A stretch of 9,005 nt of DNA from a virus (taxonomy: Duplodnaviria; Heunggongvirae; Uroviricota; Caudoviricetes): IMG/VR virus record IMGVR_UViG_3300000301_000068. One strand, written 5' to 3'. This document shows, piece by piece, positions 1 through 8,402 of this stretch (the stretch's first letter is position 1; each line of letters starts with the position of its first letter). The position numbers and the translations under genes are program-made. Under the pieces are notes generated by a model, which was not told where the DNA came from, made no database searches, and was given only the letters and a program-made list of their open reading frames with translations.

Positions 1-2309
1 TTTTTAAACCACTGCCACGCGGCCTGTAACTTTTCGCCCAGCCAGTCAAACACCGGCTTCAGTGGCGTGAACAGTTCCCCCACCGGCGCAAATGCCGCTT
101 TCAGCCCTTCAACCACACCGCCAAAGAATGCGCTGACAGGCTCCCAGTATTTACGGATAAGCAACGCCCCGGCGACAATGGCGGCCACCACGGCCACAAC
201 CGGCCAGCTAATCGCCCCGATGGCCGTCATAACAGCACTGCCAACTGTCGTGAAGATTGCCCCCATTGCGCCTGCTGCCGCGATAATGGCATTGATGCCG
301 GTGATAACCGGCCAGGCTACAAGACCAATGGCACCGATGATGCCAGTAAGCGCCAGCGCGCCACCGACAATGAGGCCGATGGTTGACGCCAGTGATTTGT
401 TTTTCTGGATCCAGCCGTCGAGTTTTAACACATACTTTGTGGCCGTCTGAGTGAGCTTACGCAGTGCGCCTTCCTGCTGGTCAAACAGGTCAGTCCCCAC
501 CGCCTCATAAGCGGACTGAAACTCCTTAAAGTCNNNNNNNNNNNNNNNNNNNNNNNNNNNNNNNNNNNNNNNNNNNNNNNNNNNNNNNNNNNNNNNNNNN
601 NNNNNNNNNNNNNNNNNNNNNNNNNNNNNNNNNNNNNNNNNNNNNNNNNNNNNNNNNNNNNNNNNNGCTTTAAACGCAGCGGTCAGTTTGTCCAGCTTTC
701 CAGTTGAGGCGGCAGTCATCAGCACGGCGGCGGCTGAGCTGGCCTCCTCCCCGAAAATAGTTTTCATGTATTCAGCCTGCTGGGCAGTACCGAGCCGGTT
801 TTTCTCAAAACTGGCCTGCATTTCNNNNNNNNNNNNNNNNNNNNNNNNNNNNNNNNNNNNNNNNNNNNNNNNNNNNNNNNNNNNNNNNNNNNNNNNNNNN
901 NNNNNNNNNNNNAATGGTAAATATTGGTCGGGTATTCCCCTTACTGTCTGAGGTTTTCACGCCAAGCTCTTTGAGTGCATCCCATGCTTTTCCCGTTGGT
1001 GCCTGCAGGCGACTTAACACGGCACGGCTTCCCGTCCCCGCCATTGNNNNNNNNNNNNNNNNNNNNNNNNNNNNNNNNNNNNNNNNNNNNNNNNNNNNNN
1101 NNNNNNNNNNNNNNNNNNNNNNNNNNNNNNNNNNNNNNNNNNNNNNNNNNNNNNNNNNNNNNNNNNNNNNNNNNNNNNNNNNNNNNNNNNNNNNNNNNNN
1201 NNNNNNNNNNNNNNNNNNNNNNNNNNCATCGCTCATGCCGTCAAAATCGGCGGCGGTTTTGTTCATCGTCATGGAGAGAACATCCCCGATATGAGCGACC
1301 TTATCGTTTGAAAGCTGAAAGGCGGATTTCATCCCCATCAACAGGGCGGCGTTTTCTTCCATCGTGCGACGGTTCGCCAGCGCCATATTCAGCGTGACCG
1401 GCGTTGCCGCCTGAATGGCATCAACATCCCCGCCGGCTTTCGCAATGATAATCTGCGCACCGGCTGCATCATCCGCCGAGGCGGCGGTGTTGTCGCCGAG
1501 CTGGCGCGCCTGCTTGCGTAGCGCGGCCATTTCTGCGGAGTCTTTTGCCACACCGAGCACGGCCTGTAATTCTGAGTTTTTCTGCGCAAACTCATAACCG
1601 GGCATCAGTAGCTTAACACCGGCCATCGTTCCCGCCGCCGCAATCCCCACACCGGCAGCGCCCACTGAGGCCATATTTCCGGCCAGTTCCTTTCCGGCCT
1701 GATAACGCTGTTTGACTGCGTTAAGTTTTGCCTGTTGTGCACTGACACGCGCCAGTGCGTCGCGCTGACGGTTAAGTTGTGCGGTGGTTTCACTGATACG
1801 GTTTTTCAGCCCCTGCTCATCATGTGCAAGATTGCGGGTATTAATTCCCACAGCGGCCAGTTCCCGCTGCTGGCGTTTAACGGAATCCGTCAGGCGGTTA
1901 TATTTCGCCTGTAAGTCCTCCGCCGCACGCTTTGCGGATTCCAGCACTTTCGCCTGAGCACGGGTCGGACGTTCGGTGTTTTTAAACTGTGTGGCAAGGG
2001 CTTCGGCCTCCTGCCGTGCCTTTTCAAGTGCATGACCAGTCACAGCGAGCTGTGCACTGGTCTTGCGGAATCCCTCAATACGGGATGCGTGACCGTTCAG
2101 CTCGCGCAGTGATTTTTGTGTTTCCCGGATATCCCCCGACAGCGATCTGCTCGCTGTACGGATGGATTTAAACGGGCGGGATGCCTGGTCAACAGCCCTG
2201 AGCAATACCTGTNNNNNNNNNNCTTGCTCGCTGTGCGGATGGATTTAAACGGGCGGGATGCCTGGTCAACAGCCCTGAGCAATACCTGTAATTTTACATT
2301 GTTACTCAT
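1..2309 (-). CDS. T: Phage tail tape measure protein (P2 gpT-like); 3' end runs off the window start
   Basis: Minus-strand ATG at 2309-2307 (MSNNVKLQVLLRAVDQASRPFKSIRTAS...) with GGAAG 6 nt upstream. Long coiled-coil-like Q/R/A/E/L-rich sequence (track ORF 805..2205), then my own translation of 667-824 (EMQASFEKNRLGTAQQAEYMKTIFGEEASSAAAVLMTAASTGKLDKLTAAFK) and a Gly/Ala-rich hydrophobic segment encoded antisense to plus ORF 67..450. Sits directly after E+E' as in P2. Interrupted by N-runs 534-666, 825-912, 1047-1226 and by the 10-N join at 2213-2222 with duplicated flanks, so the frame looks broken in the track. Confidence 0.85.
2145..2290. repeat. Uncollapsed contig overlap: 2145-2212 repeats 2223-2290 across a 10-N gap (2213-2222); likely assembly artefact
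   Basis: About 65 nt (ctcgctgt[a/g]cggatggatttaaacgggcgggatgcctggtcaacagccctgagcaatacctgt) occur on both sides of the N10 run. The single internal difference is a synonymous third-position change (cgt/cgc, Arg) in the T reading frame. The few bases adjoining the gap differ, as expected for contig ends. Confidence 0.7.
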
Positions 2310-2785: not shown

Positions 2786-3498
2786 TCACAGGCCGATATT
2801 GCGGCGGTGTTGCTCCAGCCGGTCGACGCCATTCACCTTCTCAATCATGTTAATGGTGTCGATTTCGACCAGTTCCTTACCGTCCATCGTCAGCCGGAAA
2901 TAGGTGCAGACCACGGAGATTTTCGACTCGGTGTCTTCTCCCTGTTTACCCTCGCCGGTGTCGATTTCTTTCTGACGGCCACGCATGACCACTTCGACGG
3001 CCACCGTTTCGCCGGTATCGTCACGCTGGTAAGAGCCTGCAAAACGAATCGGCACGGCATCCACACCGGTTGCGGCGTAAAGTTCCCAGATAACCGAATC
3101 CGGGAAGCCCCCGAGCNNNNNNNNNNATCTTCTCCCTGTTTCCCCTCGCCGGTGTCGATTTCTTTCTGACGTCCACGCATGACCACCTCGACGGCCACCG
3201 TTTCGCCGGTATCGTCACGCTGGTAAGAACCAGCAAAACGAATCGGCACGGCATCCACACCGGTTGCGGCGTAAAGCTCCCAGATAACCGAATCCGGGAA
3301 GCCCCCGAGCGACCACTCCATTGACAGCGCATCGTCATCAAGGCCGAGGTCTACCGGTGCGCTGCCGTTCATCCCCGCACCGCGATAATTTTCGAGCTTA
3401 CGGGTCAGTTTTGGCAGCGTGACGGACGTTGCAACGCCCTGATAGCTGTAGCCGTTCAGAAAGACATTCATGTATTTGAGTTTGCGCGGCATTGCCAT
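2786..3498 (-). CDS. FII: Tail tube protein (P2 gpFII-like); frame broken in this assembly by a 183-bp duplicated overlap and 10-N gap
   Basis: ATG at 3498-3496 with GGAG 8 nt upstream (MAMPRKLKYMNVFLNGYSYQGVATSVTLPKLTRKLENYRGAGMNGSAPVDLGLDDDALSMEWSLGGFPDSVIWELYAATGVDAVPIRFAGSYQRDDTGETVAVEVVMRGRQKEIDTGEGKQGED...). The C-terminal part ...TESKISVVCTYFRLTMDGKELVEIDTINMIEKVNGVDRLEQHRRNIGL ends at 2786. Removing 2934-3127 restores a single 172-codon ORF, the expected size for a P2-type tube protein. Confidence 0.8.
2934..3310. repeat. Uncollapsed overlap: 2934-3116 and 3128-3310 are about 97% identical (6 differences) across a 10-N gap (3117-3126)
   Basis: Direct comparison of the two 183-nt copies. 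All six differences are third-codon-position synonymous changes in the FII frame (ggt/ggg, ggc/gga, gaa/gag, gca/gct, ggc/ggt, gaa/gag). Both copies encode the identical peptide DAVPIRFAGSYQRDDTGETVAVEVVMRGRQKEIDTGEGKQGED. Confidence 0.75.
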
Positions 3499-3510: not shown

Positions 3511-4849
3511 TTAATTGCTGTTAACCGAGGTGACCAGATTTGCCAGGTATTTATCGGTAATACGCTGGCGCAGGGTCAGGTTTTCGAGAGGAGGCACCGG
3601 GGTATAGTCGTAGTCGATATACAGTTTTCCGGCCTTGAGGGTTTCCGCATCGTTGGATTCTTCGCTGAACCAGCAGGTCGCATCCACGATATAGCCGTTT
3701 GTTTTCAGCTCTCGGAATTTGGCATTGATGCCGTCAACGATGTCGCGAATCAGCGTTGCGGTGATGGGCTTGTCCACCGCCCACATGTGCGCCTCAGCCA
3801 TCGTGTCGGCCAGCACCTGCGCGGTGCGGGTGTAGTTTTCAAAGAGGAACAGCGGGTCATCAGAGCAGGTACGGTTACCCCAGAAGCGGAAACCGTCGCG
3901 GCGAATCAGCGTAGTGACGCCTGACTCGTTAAGCAGGTCAGCATCGGTGCCGGACTCCTGCAAATCCCAGAATACGGACGCGCTGATGCCGGTAACACCG
4001 TTCACCCCGACGTTGGACAGCGTTTTATGCCAGCCCTGCTCCTGGTCGATTTTAGCACGCAGCCCCAGCGCACGGGCGGTGGCATACGCGGTGGCGGTGG
4101 TACTGGTGACCGTATCCCATGCGAGGAAATCCGGCCAGATGACCATCAGCTCACGCTGGCTGAAATTCTGGCGGTAGGCTTTCACCTCGGAAATAGTTTT
4201 ACAGCCCCATGCGCTGATATACCCGAAAGCGCGCAGCTTCTGACAGACTGATGCCAGTGCAACAGCCACCTCTTTGGTATCCAGCCCCGGCACACCAAGA
4301 ATACGCGGTTTAACANNNNNNNNNNNNNNNNNNNNNNNNNNNNNNNNNNNNNNNNNNNNNNNNNNNNNNNNNNNNNNNNNNNNNNNNNNNNNNNNNNNNN
4401 NNNNNNNNNNNNNNNNNNNNNNNNNNNNNNNNNNNNNNNNNNNNGGTGGTTCCGATGATATTGGAAACAGTCTGCGCGAGTTTCGTTTCCTCGTCGTCGC
4501 CGGTGCCGTCTTCCACGCGCACAACAACGGTGACCGGTTTTGACTGGTCGGCGATGGCCTGCAGCGACGCCGCCAGCGTGCCTTTTTTACCGGCCTTTGC
4601 AATTGCGCTCTGCACATTNNNNNNNNNNNNNNNNNNNNNNNNNNNNNNNNNNNNNNNNNNNNNNNNNNNNNNNNNNNNNNNNNNNNNNNNNNNNNNNNNN
4701 NNNNNNNNNNNNNNNNNNNNNNNNNNNNNNNNNNNNNNNNNNNNNNNNNNNNNNNNNNNNNNNCCGACAATGGCGGTGGATACGGTGGAAATGACGCGGG
4801 TGCCGTCGTTAATCTCCAGCACCTGCACGCCATGATGATAGTCGCTCAT
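3511..4849 (-). CDS. FI: Contractile tail sheath protein (P2 gpFI-like); interrupted by N-runs 4316-4444 and 4619-4763
   Basis: ATG at 4849-4847 with GGAG 9 nt upstream. N-terminus [28 protein letters not shown], middle segment [58 protein letters not shown], and long C-terminal part [37 protein letters not shown]...[25 protein letters not shown] ending at TAA 3513-3511. The frame changes across the 4316-4444 N-run, which is why the track splits it into two ORFs. Confidence 0.85.
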
Positions 4850-4949: not shown

Positions 4950-4976
4950 AAAGAAAAGGCGGGCAATCAGCCCGCC
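4950..4976 (-). terminator. Rho-independent terminator ending the tail-fibre operon downstream of G
   Basis: Minus strand reads GGCGGGC-tgatt-GCCCGCC followed by TTTTCTTT, starting 5 nt after the G stop codon. Confidence 0.65.
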
Positions 4977-4981
4977 TGTGT

Positions 4982-5560
4982 TTATTGCGGTAGTTCCGGC
5001 CATTCAATATCCGGGGCATTTTCCGGCTGAACGCGATTCAGTAGCACACGGTATTTTTTCCAGTGTGTCAGGCTTAACTTTTCTTCCTCGGTAGCCATAT
5101 CTAAATCGACAGCATCCTGCAGAGTGGCAATAATTTCACCTGCATATGCAATCTGCTCTTTCTTCTGAGACTCCGCCGCTCTGACAAGCGCATCACGTTC
5201 TGCATTCTCATCATTCACCCACGCATTTCCGTCCCATTTCTGATAATCCCCCTCCGGGGAAATAGCTGTCACGTCTGGAGGTAATACGCCAAGTTCAGAA
5301 ATATAAATGGCTGCTCCTGTTTTCGTTTCGTAGACGGTCTTTCCGCGATGGTCTTCCATCAGTTCCCATTTCATTTCATCTGCATTGAAAACGGCTGCAT
5401 AACCAGCAGGAATATCAGGTGGTGCAATATCTGTACTGTTTGCAGGCAGGCCAGTATACGGCGGAATATATGCATCACTTTCGCCAATAAACTCATTGGT
5501 TCCATTAAGTAAATTGAAAACGCGGATAGTTTGTGCTTCTGCACTCATTCTGAAAGCCAT
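4982..5560 (-). CDS. G: Tail fibre assembly protein (chaperone); lambda Tfa-like N-terminal half in the P2 gpG position
   Basis: 192-aa [57 protein letters not shown]...[38 protein letters not shown]. The C-terminal [11 protein letters not shown]...EWPE motif is characteristic of the Tfa family. Its ATG overlaps the H stop (TAATG). Confidence 0.8.
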
Positions 5561-8235
5561 TATGCAAGCCTCACAATATAGTTAAATGCGATGTTTTTGA
5601 CGGTGTTTTCGGTATTACCCGTAGCATTTACCGTGATGGTGTGCCCGTGCGCACCTAATGCTACAGTGTGTGCATGGGCACCAATACCTACAGTGTGGTT
5701 ATGCTGACCAATATCCACCGTATGGGCGTGCGCTCCGGCTGTGCTGGACACCTGATTGTTTCCTGAAGCCTGTACACGCTGTTTTCCACCGACAGAGTCG
5801 CCGCCATAAACACCACCGACAGTGTGCGTATGATTGCCCGTATTGTTCGTTGATTTTGTGCCATGGTTAAACGTACTGACTGTCTTCGTGCCGTAATCAA
5901 ATGAACTGGTCGTTTTCGTCCCTAAATCCGTATTTGACGCACTGGCGCTGTGAGTATGCGATTTAATCCCGTCCTGTTCCTGTGACAATACAGCACGTCC
6001 ACTGGCGGGNNNNNNNNNNNNNNNNNNNNNNNNNNNNNNNNNNNNNNNNNNNNNNNNNNNNNNNNNNNNNNNNNNNNNNNNNNNNNNNNNNNNNCCCTTG
6101 ATTGTCCAGCCGCGCATATCTGGAATAACACCAGAAGGATAGGCAATAGCCAGTTTAGGATATGCTGCCTTATCAAACGTCTGCCCCTGCATAATTGCAT
6201 AGCCTGCAGGTGGTGTATCTGATGGCCACGGCAGCGGAACACCTGGCGGAAACGCTTCAATATTTGCCGAGCCGTCAAATTTTACGCCGTTAATTGTCCT
6301 TGCCGTTTTCAGCTTTGTTGCTGTAGCCGCATTGCCGGACAGTTCACCAGAAAGGCCTGCACTGAATGTCTGTTTTGCCTCCCATGTCTGGGCTTCGTCG
6401 ATAATTGGTAGCCGACGAATATTGAAGCTACGCTCCCCAGGATTGCCATATAAGCGGACTGTAAAAAAACGATAGTTGGTTTTGTTTGAAGTGCTGCGCC
6501 ATACCTGCATTGAACGGGCGACACCTCCGCCTTCACTGGGGCCAACAGTGATATTTATCAGGTTAGTATCAATGACGCCCCATTCCATCCCATCGGGAAT
6601 ATTGGTCATATCTGAAAGCCTGACAGTTATCATGCTGCCCGGTATAAAGTCGTAGGTCTGCCAGTCCAGATTGGATAACCTGTCGGTAACACCGCCGACA
6701 CCTAATTTAGTGAGTAATGATTTTGAGTTGTATACTTCCGCCCATTCCCCCCAGTCAGTTTCACCGCTGGCGCGGGTTCGCTGAAATGTCCGGTTTTTAT
6801 AGGCATCCGTTGCTGAAACAGTCGTATATGTCTGGATATACGATTCAATATCGCAACGTTTTTTCACCTCGACTACCGAGCCAACAGCAAGATCTTTGTC
6901 GGTAAGTGGTGCATTTGTGGCCTGTTTCGTGACGCTATAAATACCAGGCTTTAAAAGGTCATCAAGATCCCCTGAATAAGTCCATCCCGTGGACTGATAC
7001 CCAACAGCAATCCAGTCCTCCCATTGTGGATTTTCTGCATCCCATGAGGCAGTCAGTCCGCGAATGTACATAGTCCCACTACGGGTGGTGTAACGTTGCA
7101 TCTTCCCATACAGACCGCCTTCAAAGACTTCCAGAATACCCTGCCCAAAACTCCCTTCCTCCGGGAAATGACGGTCAAATGAGGCTATTGATGTACTGCT
7201 ATTGCGCCATATTCCCAGGTGTTCCGCACCACCTAAAGAATTCAGGTCAATTGACGTGCTTAATGGGCGAGTCCCGCTTGTAATAACTCTCCATGCACTC
7301 CATACAGGACTGACAGGGTTCCATTCTGCATCAAGCATCCGAATGTAAATATTACCGGTTCGGGTGGTGTAGCGTTGTGTGCAGTGAAAGCGACCAGCAT
7401 TGAATACTTCCAGAACCCCATTGCCTTTATCTTCAGGGTAACCAGACTCTGGTTTTGCAGTGGATTGTGACGGACATGACCACGTTCCAAGATATTTTTC
7501 TTCTGGGCCATAGGAGTCAAGATTGTCAGTGGTTGGAATCATTCCATTGTGTTTCATAAACGTCAGGCTGGTAACGCCAATATTGTCCAGAAAAGCGCCC
7601 TTATCTGGAATATCGCCACCATTCTGGTCTTTCTGCAGACGTTTCTCAGCATTGTCATAGGCTGCTTTTACTGCCTTTGGCGTTGCCGCCAGCTTTTCAC
7701 TGGTGCTGTTTGTTGCACTGCTTAACTGAGTAAAACCTTTTTCTGTCAGCGTGGCGTCAGGATGGCGGCGGGACTGCTCATGCTCTGCGATTTTGTCATC
7801 GACGTAATCCTGCGTCGCCATCACTGTGCTGGCATCAATACTCAGCTCAACGGACGCCACATTGCTGAGAATAATAACCATGCGGCAGGTCTGCGCACGT
7901 CCGGAGCCTTCAGCCAGTTCTGGCTTATAGCTTTCTGCCATGTTGGATACCGCAATCAGTGTTCCGGCATCGTCATACAGACCAAGCTCACGCATCCAGA
8001 AGCCGCCCACTTCTGGCGGAACAACCAGTTCAGCCACGATATAGTTTTTATTCTTGTTATCCACGCTGACTTTATTCAGGGCGTGACGCCAGACCTCATG
8101 CACCAGTTTCGTCTGACCAGCATCCGGCACCGGCAATTTGCCATTACCGTCACCCACGGCCATTGCAGACAGAGTTACTTTTTTCCCGCCGGGGACAGTG
8201 GCGGCTGCCAGCTTCGCGGCTCCGGCAGTAGTGAT
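5560..8235 (-). CDS. H: Tail fibre protein (P2 gpH-like N-terminus, divergent distal receptor-binding region); 5' end hidden in N-run 8237-8402, internal N-run 6010-6094
   Basis: My translation upstream of the track ORF start gives [56 protein letters not shown]..., matching the conserved gpH N-terminus as I recall it, so the true start lies in the N-run. The ORF stays open to TAA 5562-5560 and ends ...[11 protein letters not shown]. It contains the PDMRG collar-like motif, an internal tandem domain repeat and a His-rich HxH C-terminal region. Confidence 0.85.
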
Positions 8236-8402
8236 ANNNNNNNNNNNNNNNNNNNNNNNNNNNNNNNNNNNNNNNNNNNNNNNNNNNNNNNNNNNNNNNN
8301 NNNNNNNNNNNNNNNNNNNNNNNNNNNNNNNNNNNNNNNNNNNNNNNNNNNNNNNNNNNNNNNNNNNNNNNNNNNNNNNNNNNNNNNNNNNNNNNNNNNN
8401 NN

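Follow-up and report, generated by a model that had tools for sequence, protein, structure and literature searches.

What is the histidine-rich end of this tail fibre, and what may vary in it? In the window, the whole stretch of 9,005 nucleotides that was analysed, a tail-fibre gene ends in a series of His-x-His (HxH) motifs. Our analysis indicates that this region is very probably the needle of a receptor-binding tip of the T4 gp37/lambda Stf type, carried on a P2-like prophage tail fibre.

The tail-fibre gene and its neighbourhood

The features of the locus are collected in Table 1. The fibre translation has 867 aa, encoded by the minus strand at 5563-8163. Its residues 1-119 match PF12571 (E = 4.3e-46), the match covering profile positions 32-150 of 150, and the homologue from E. 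coli M15 has 32 extra N-terminal residues compared with the listed ORF. The true start of the fibre probably lies upstream of this ORF, in or beyond the run of N at 8237-8402. The fibre also contains a PF03406 repeat (E = 2.6e-21) and, directly N-terminal of the needle, a Collar domain (E = 7.2e-10), to which the short tail fibre 9cuy showed a weak match. When the shaft was compared with itself by BLAST at E < 1e-3 with default filters, no repeats were found; a relaxed search confirmed two of the three shaft repeats seen by eye. The junction between collar and needle is masked in the window by a run of 85 N that lies 45 nt before the codon of the first HxH. The length of this run is not faithful, since 4 nt (TTTG) occupy the same place in E. 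coli homologues.

The genes around the fibre (I, baseplate J, sheath, tube, E and tape measure) form a P2-like tail neighbourhood, and the order in the window is that of phage P2: J-I-H-G, terminator, FI-FII-E-T. Like gpH of P2 (Peduovirus), the window fibre combines the PF12571 N-terminal baseplate-attachment domain with the PF03406 repeat. It differs from P2 gpH at the receptor-binding end, which is a gp37/Stf-type cassette. Peduovirus records were found that carry the same tip.

The gene directly downstream of the fibre encodes the tail-fibre assembly chaperone G, the stop codon of the fibre and the ATG of G overlapping (TAATG). Identity of G is 64% with lambda Tfa (E = 2e-92) and 29% with T4 gp38 (E = 5e-19). 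The terminator-like hairpin that comes after G is the putative end of the fibre operon.

Table 1. Positions of the features of the fibre locus in the window; residue numbers (aa) are those of the 867-aa fibre translation.
Feature	Position	Strand	Remarks
Intrinsic-terminator-like hairpin and T-run	4957..4977	minus	8 bp stem, 7 G-C pairs; directly after chaperone gene
Tail-fibre assembly chaperone G, 192 aa	4982..5560	minus	P2 G/lambda Tfa/T4 gp38 family; PF02413, E = 3.3e-40
Tail-fibre gene	5560..8163	minus	ORF; P2 gpH-type N-terminus, mosaic shaft, T4 gp37/lambda Stf-type tip
C-terminal return segment (aa 842-867)	5563..5640	minus	nearly invariant in family
Exchanged cassette	5629..5865	minus	~240-nt patch; covers HxH 2, head and whole descending arm
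Descending arm (aa 812-841)	5641..5730	minus	four HxH rungs: HAH, HNH, HAH, HGH
H839-G-H841	5641-5649	minus	GAHGHTITV
H830-A-H832	5668-5676	minus	GAHAHTV
H821-N-H823	5695-5703	minus	GQHNHTV
H812-A-H814	5722-5730	minus	GAHAHTV
Head loop (aa 781-811, ~31 residues)	5731..5823	minus	aligns to T4 gp37 932-965, tip subdomain
Ascending arm (aa 736-780)	5824..5958	minus	HxH 1, three 10-aa x-D/N-x-G-T-K units, HxH 2
H778-T-H780	5824-5832	minus	GNHTHTV
H736-T-H738	5950-5958	minus	KSHTHSAS
Run of 85 N	6010..6094		within fibre gene, between TIKG and PASG
Collar domain, tip base (aa 641-688)	6100..6243	minus	PF07484; homologous to T4 gp37 D10/gp12 collar

Homology of the tip to the T4 gp37 needle

A His-rich HxH cluster had been noticed at 5630-5965 in an earlier note made from the sequence alone. 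The cluster is real: the fibre has six HxH motifs in all, spanning 5641-5958, and 13 of its 21 histidines fall within the last 149 residues. The same note had compared the cluster with the metal needle of T4 gp37, and this comparison now has the support of homology to the very protein named, of aligned histidines and of an adjoining chaperone gene, metal binding itself being predicted by homology. The homology covers the last ~245 residues of the fibre. The solved T4 gp37 tip (PDB 2XGF) matched fibre residues 622-691 and 720-867 with E = 7.8e-64, residues 622-691 aligning with chain residues 16-82 of the structure. By BLASTP the fibre tip was 60% identical to T4 gp37 867-1026. The six HxH motifs align with T4 H883/885, H929/931, H966/968, H980/982, H989/991 and H998/1000. 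Among 102 aligned homologues, H736/738, H778/780, H830/832 and H839/841 are invariant, and H821/823 are conserved in at least 90%.

T4 gp37 shares with the window fibre a homologous collar, needle and return in the same order (collar, ascending arm, head, descending arm), an identical C-terminal segment of 14 residues and a chaperone gene directly downstream. In T4 the D10 domain comprises residues 811-881 and 1010-1026, and residues 1010-1026, equivalent to the return segment of the window fibre, rejoin the collar domain (PMC6957217). The two tips also differ. T4 has seven HxH sites and the window fibre six. The one lacking is the iron site H915/H917, and its absence goes with matched changes in the two needle arms: a third 10-aa GTK unit stands in its place, and the descending arm is without the corresponding 5-residue extension. 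The ascending-arm units between HxH 1 and HxH 2 read TDLGTK, FDYGTK and FNHGTK; a PF03335 repeat match was obtained at residues 731-744. We asked whether H767, within FNHGTK, could be what is left of H915/H917 and rejected this, since homologues carry Tyr at this place (FDYGTK, FNYGTK) and the unit is therefore a GTK repeat and not a decayed HxH. The head-loop sequence also differs from that of T4, which presumably means another receptor. The chaperone belongs to the lambda Tfa subtype, and the remaining fibre resembles that of P2 and not that of T4.

The Stf (orf-314 part) and Tfa (orf-194) of lambda (Ur-lambda) have the same gene order as the window, with a tip that is 58% identical (E = 7e-63) and the chaperone identity given above. 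Stf has eight HxH motifs and arms of 56 and 41 residues, against six motifs and arms of 42 and 27 in the window fibre. Its head has 48 residues between the starts of the flanking HxH motifs, compared with 34 in the window, and its N-terminal attachment part is of the siphovirus type whereas that of the window fibre is of the P2 gpH type. T4 is thought to have taken its tip from the lambda lineage (PMC3157838).

By this homology we infer a trimeric, metal-binding tip. Three identical chains would leave the collar domain (by homology to 2XGF), extend outwards as the ascending arm, turn in the small head, return as the descending arm and finish in the collar. At each HxH, two histidines from each of three chains would face the fibre axis, and the six imidazoles would hold one metal octahedrally. 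The window fibre would thus hold six ions, compared with seven in T4 and eight predicted in lambda Stf, and these would register and stiffen the six-stranded needle. The Tfa-family protein G would be needed for the tip to trimerise. What the sequences show directly is the homology itself, where the histidines lie and how well they are kept, arms that vary together, the adjoining chaperone gene and a natural exchange of the cassette. An AlphaFold2 monomer model of the last 149 residues, built on a 102-sequence alignment, had a pLDDT of 71.9 (arms >80, head ~55). Foldseek found no match to this monomer in the PDB with E < 2.5, 2XGF included, a result to be expected of a single chain from what would be an intertwined trimer.

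The metal is most likely iron, the ion in T4 being Fe(II). In T4 gp37 there are seven coordinated irons, and H929/H931 are essential (PMC6957217). HxH motifs from three chains form an octahedral Fe(II) site, for which a role in folding register and stiffness has been proposed (PMC6116203). The same chemistry, octahedral Fe(II) on a three-fold axis, occurs in the R1/R2 pyocin fibre shaft and in the spike tips of P2 gpV and phi92 (PMC6116203); unlike the window fibre with its six motifs, these have a single HxH each, in unrelated folds, and no sequence homology was detected between the window fibre and these proteins. It is quite improbable that the sites of the window fibre bind another metal, such as zinc or nickel, or none, with the histidines forming a hydrogen-bonded ladder. 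Sequence alone cannot tell the metal, and in the crystal of T4 gp12 the HxH site is occupied by Zn, which may be an artefact of purification (PMC6116203). However, iron was found in T4 gp37 and in all the other natively purified HxH sites listed, namely P2 gpV, the phi92 spike and the R1/R2 pyocin fibre and spike (PMC6116203), and the needle of the window fibre is ~60% identical to gp37. Separately, iron as a ligand for the receptor (the "Ferrojan horse", PMC11705849) was considered and rejected, as by homology the ions would be buried on the fibre axis.

Variation of the head and conservation of the chaperone

The tip region had earlier been taken as a whole for the likely determinant of host range. 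Sequence comparison favours this in a narrower form: what varies is the head loop together with the distal needle, and the HxH rungs themselves are a conserved scaffold. The fibre of E. coli AR_0081 is 98-100% identical to the window fibre outside the patch 5629-5865. Within the patch, the mismatch map gave ~35-40% DNA divergence, with flanks at 2-5%, and the head loops are 42% identical. The head and distal needle are probably swapped between phages as a cassette, via recombination in the conserved flanks. Among homologues, the spacing from HxH to HxH across the head ranges from 33 to 70 residues, and the head sequence differs too. An exact search of genome contigs with 57 nt of the DNA encoding the head gave no match.

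The head loop, a hypervariable segment, would be the distal turn of the hairpin. In T4, where the tip has been studied by mutagenesis, residues of the gp37 tip bind LPS/OmpC (PMC6957217). By analogy, the head loops at the far end of the needle may contact the host receptor and set the host range. We consider it very improbable that specificity is set by chaperone G staying on the tip as an adhesin instead of by the head loop. G does belong to a tail-fibre assembly family, and in T2/T6-type phages an unrelated protein, also called gp38, caps gp37 as an adhesin (PMC3157838). The relatives of G, however, are lambda Tfa (64% identity) and the gp38 of T4 type, and the latter acts as a chaperone, unlike the adhesin of T2-type phages. 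G is also identical at 185 of 192 residues between the window and AR_0081 despite ~42% identity of the head loops, so G tracks the conserved C-terminus and not the variable part.

With the head loop as the candidate specificity segment, the gene can be annotated as a P2-type tail fibre with a gp37/Stf-type iron-needle tip, the specificity segment at 5731-5823 lying inside the patch 5629-5865. For phage engineering, the window and AR_0081 mark a swappable head, with shaft, needle base and chaperone unchanged. The P2:S16 chimera (PMC9594776) has a different type of tip (S16 gp37/gp38) and is irrelevant to that of the window.

A gp37/Stf and gp38/Tfa module common to >200 phages has been described as a T4/lambda-based enteric receptor-binding protein (RBP) family (Magaziner and Salmond 2022; PMC9659904). 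Three traits define the family: the last ~215 aa are homologous to gp37/Stf, the divergence has its centre at the T4 specificity region, and the next gene downstream is gp38/Tfa-like (PMC9659904). All three are found in the window fibre, which shows no difference in kind from the family; its own feature is that the copy belongs to a prophage and sits on a P2-like tail. The tip also has a DNA match in Citrobacter phage phiNP (ORF6). A literature search for the phrase "His box" (Tetart et al.) did not find it. The window tip is a typical representative of a family already described: the motif, structure, metal chemistry, chaperone and spread among enteric phages are all published, and no new question is opened by them.

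Repeats and needle length among homologues

The needles of 105 complete homologues fall into discrete classes with 5, 6, 7 or 8 HxH motifs, and the window fibre is of the 6-HxH class. As the two arms change in length they do so together: the ascending arm exceeds the descending arm by 14-15 residues in 99 of the 105 (r = 0.88). This co-variation is what an antiparallel hairpin needle would require. The head-proximal ascending HxH is absent in 4 of 109 complete homologues, and therefore not every site is indispensable.

The DNA under the motifs had been described in the earlier note as containing short direct repeats, which might slip and so change the repeat number. Such repeats are present, but they are weak and not beyond chance. 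Tandem Repeats Finder reported one array at 5639-5697, with a 27-nt period, 2.2 copies, 78% matches and a score of 67, and in the descending arm the HxH rungs have the corresponding period of 9 aa (27 nt). The four 27-nt units encoding G-x-H-x-H-x-x-x-x are only 48-63% identical pairwise and differ mostly in their choice of synonymous codons. Within 5630-5965, exact direct repeats reach at most 10 nt, and a repeat of at least 10 nt arose in 9% of codon shuffles. Because the DNA units have diverged and the DNA repeat is within chance, the HxH repeat is a repeat at the protein level. Near-identical tandem DNA units, as expected of a slippage-prone (contingency) locus, are not found at the HxH array.

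It is extremely unlikely, then, that the array slips or varies in phase as a tandem repeat, with a copy number that shifts often and so alters the fibre. The 27-nt array, two 10-nt exact repeats at a 27-nt offset and the range of 5 to 8 HxH across homologues would fit such a locus. Set against these are the divergence of the units and their synonymous codons, the ease with which codon shuffles reach the 10-nt repeat, and the pairing of copy-number changes between the arms in 99 of 105 homologues, where the product of slippage in one arm would be out of register. The natural variant that was seen is a patch replacement, with no unit gained or lost. As the repeat number shifts only in matched two-arm steps, cassette exchange under structural constraint, and not slippage of one array, would explain it, and the suggestion of slippage was not upheld.

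A last reading, in which the run of histidines arose by chance or low complexity and does nothing specific, is already refuted: nothing but the compositional bias of the region speaks for it, and against it stand shuffles of the whole protein (mean 0.5 HxH; at least 6 in 0 of 100,000), shuffles confined to the His-rich last 149 aa (mean 1.04; 6 reached in 17 of 100,000), the match to a solved structure at E = 7.8e-64 and the invariance of histidines across 102 homologues.

Given the gp37/Stf needle as the preferred reading, the HxH classes suggest a further idea, which we put forward tentatively and hold to be rather unlikely. The needle may be quantised in length, having 5, 6, 7 or 8 metal layers that are added by paired units, and its length may be a second parameter of host range. 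A layer would be added as a 10-aa x-D-Y-G-T-K unit in the ascending arm and a 9-aa G-x-H-x-H unit in the descending arm or, alternatively, as a 14-aa HxH unit in each arm. If this were true, needle length could be selected beside the head loop, for example for reach through O-antigen or capsule, and the six-layer form of the window would be a structurally uncharacterised class. At the sequence level, the data cover the classes and the arm co-variation. One head type was found on both 6-layer and 5-layer needles.

Identity of the fibre tip

The window holds a P2-like prophage tail module on the minus strand, in the order baseplate J, I, fibre H, chaperone G, terminator, sheath FI, tube FII, E and tape-measure T. 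The fibre stop codon is overlapped by the ATG of G (TAATG), and G is a Caudo_TAP/Tfa protein (Pfam PF02413, E = 3.3e-40). A strong terminator-like hairpin, AGGCGGGC-TGATT-GCCCGCCT and then TTTTCTTT, lies a few bases past the G stop codon and sets the sheath gene apart from the fibre operon.

Features of the tail-fibre region and sequence gaps in the window
Feature	Window (nt)	Fibre (aa)	Strand	Evidence or size
Fibre H	5560-8163		minus	
P2-type N-terminal domain PF12571 in fibre				Pfam, E = 4.3e-46
PF03406 in fibre				Pfam, E = 2.6e-21
Region like phage Mu tail fibre protein S	~7522-7761	135-214		PDB 5YVQ, 8JU3
Two tandem shaft domains	~6980-7520	214-395		~90 aa each
Third shaft domain		~395-490		similar by eye only
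Shaft DNA compared with AR_0081	6095-8163			
Collar domain PF07484 in fibre		641-688		Pfam, E = 7.2e-10
Short PF03335 repeat in fibre tip				Pfam
Six HxH motifs	5641-5958			
Head loop		781-811		31 aa
Patch divergent from AR_0081	~5629-5865			
Chaperone G	4982-5560		minus	
Terminator-like hairpin	4957-4977		minus	
Direct duplication, first	2148-2212 vs 2225-2289			65 nt, 98%
Direct duplication, second	2950-3106 vs 3144-3300			at least 157 nt, 97%
Nine N runs	534-666, 825-912, 1047-1226, 2213-2222, 3117-3126, 4316-4444, 4619-4763, 6010-6094, 8237-8402			

A search of solved structures matched the receptor-binding tip of T4 gp37 (PDB 2XGF, E = 7.8e-64) over fibre aa 622-691 (collar) and 720-867 (needle, head and return). 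By BLASTP the tip shared 60% identity with gp37 867-1026 and 58% with lambda Stf orf-314; for G the values were 64% with lambda Tfa and 29% with T4 gp38 (E = 5e-19). The region, which the earlier note had likened to T4 gp37, is therefore a homologue of gp37 itself, accompanied by its cognate chaperone. The tip protein is 100% identical to an annotated RefSeq E. coli fibre. The AlphaFold2 monomer had a pLDDT of 71.9 (above 80 in the arms, about 55 in the head) and no significant PDB neighbour.

The needle of T4 gp37 contains a row of seven iron atoms. The H929/H931 pair is essential, and contacts with LPS and OmpC are made by tip residues 933-959 (PMC6957217). Three HxH motifs together coordinate Fe(II) octahedrally, an arrangement proposed to serve folding register and stiffness (PMC6116203). 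We infer metal identity, trimerisation, chaperone requirement and receptor from homologues. A lambda origin has been described for the T4 g37 C-terminus and g38 (PMC3157838). The last ~215 aa and the downstream gp38/Tfa gene are common to more than 200 enteric phages, and divergence in this gp37/Stf-type family is centred on the specificity region (PMC9659904). Of 5426 complete E. coli genomes, 3515 matched part of the module and 74 matched it across 80% or more of its length (best, 98.7%). It was also present in 470 protein clusters and 310 phage records, among them lambda, Tequatrovirus and Peduovirus. The HxH cluster, correctly read in the earlier note, is a well-described module and already known.

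Histidine motifs and needle length

The fibre contains six HxH motifs (H736/738, H778/780, H812/814, H821/823, H830/832 and H839/841), exactly those previously named, and 13 of its 21 histidines fall within the last 149 residues. None of 100,000 whole-protein shuffles reached six HxH, and 17 of 100,000 did so when the His-rich C-terminus alone was shuffled. Short direct repeats, also claimed for the underlying DNA, are present but weak: the units have diverged, and the longest exact direct repeat, 10 nt, was matched by 9% of codon shuffles. TRF reported a single 27-nt array (2.2 copies, 78% matches). The four 27-nt units coding the descending rungs share 48-63% mutual identity, and their synonymous codons mostly differ.

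Rather than lacking conserved histidines, 102 aligned homologues, a set omitting four with a different, larger head and no head-proximal ascending HxH, kept H736/738, H778/780, H830/832 and H839/841 invariant and H821/823 at least 90% conserved. In these four tip homologues from outside the window (P0067, P0079, P0092 and P0102), the other rungs are kept. This suggests that the head-proximal ascending motif is dispensable in some lineages.

Chain anatomy was read from the alignment with T4, lambda and close relatives. The order is collar, HxH 1, three 10-aa units (TDLGTK, FDYGTK, FNHGTK), HxH 2, head, four HxH with a 9-aa period, and tail. The C-terminal tail after the last HxH is nearly invariant; its T4 equivalent rejoins the collar (D10 = 811-881 plus 1010-1026; PMC6957217). 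Unlike T4 gp37, the window fibre has no counterpart of site H915/H917.

Arm lengths, taken as the span from the first HxH to the last in each arm of 105 complete homologues, fell into discrete classes. Ascending/descending arms were 32/18 with 5 HxH (38 sequences), 42/27 with 6 HxH (23 sequences plus the window), 46/32 with 7 HxH (T4 type, 29 sequences) and 56/41 with 8 HxH (lambda type, 8 sequences). The two arms differed by 14-15 residues in 99 of the 105 (r = 0.88), matched variation of the kind that an antiparallel hairpin needle requires. From the T4 contacts G921-F970 and H929-G964 (PMC6957217), the register works out at i + j ≈ 1892, which sets every ascending GTK unit level with a descending HxH. 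Carried over to the window fibre, this register would predict six axial sites across ~42 residues and a needle roughly 13 Å shorter than that of T4. The quantised needle lengths with co-varying arms, and the place of the window fibre in the six-site class, are mildly new and the sole such point.

Mosaicism and host range

The shaft DNA is 98.3% identical to E. coli AR_0081 and ~30 other genomes, and the AR_0081 fibre protein is 98-100% identical throughout, save at aa ~768-846. The corresponding DNA patch, which takes in HxH 2, the head and the descending arm, is roughly 35-40% different, against 2-5% in its flanks. The E. coli M15 fibre has the same sequence at the N-terminus (aa 1-170) and in the tip (aa 590-867) but only 35-72% identity in the shaft (aa 170-600). 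The window fibre is a mosaic of three parts, with the N-terminus and tip as in M15 and a shaft 98-100% identical to that of AR_0081. The window head type also occurs on the 5-HxH needle of Salmonella protein P0023. These comparisons support the proposal that the region determines host range, and they place the variable element in the head and not in the HxH rungs. They likewise support its role as a recombination substrate, but not the repeat slippage proposed with it. G is identical at 185 of 192 positions between the window and AR_0081 although the heads differ, so the chaperone tracks the conserved C-terminus and not the variable part.

Upstream of the shaft, the region matching the solved Mu protein S (E = 1e-15 to 1e-17) is a further shared fibre module. 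The two tandem shaft domains share 44% mutual identity (E = 3e-20); none of the shaft domains was matched in Pfam, and they may be knob-like, as in R-pyocin fibres.

Sequence gaps and assembly

The N runs are not length-faithful. The fibre gene is broken by the 85-N run at 6010-6094, which lies 45 nt before the codon of the first HxH; E. coli homologues have only 4 nt in place of the run. The sheath gene lies in two frames and is ~148 nt longer than its 1191-nt E. coli M15 homologue. Both 10-N runs are bordered by near-identical direct duplications, which repeat segments of the tape-measure and tube genes, disrupting their frames; these look like unmerged contig ends in the scaffold, not biology.
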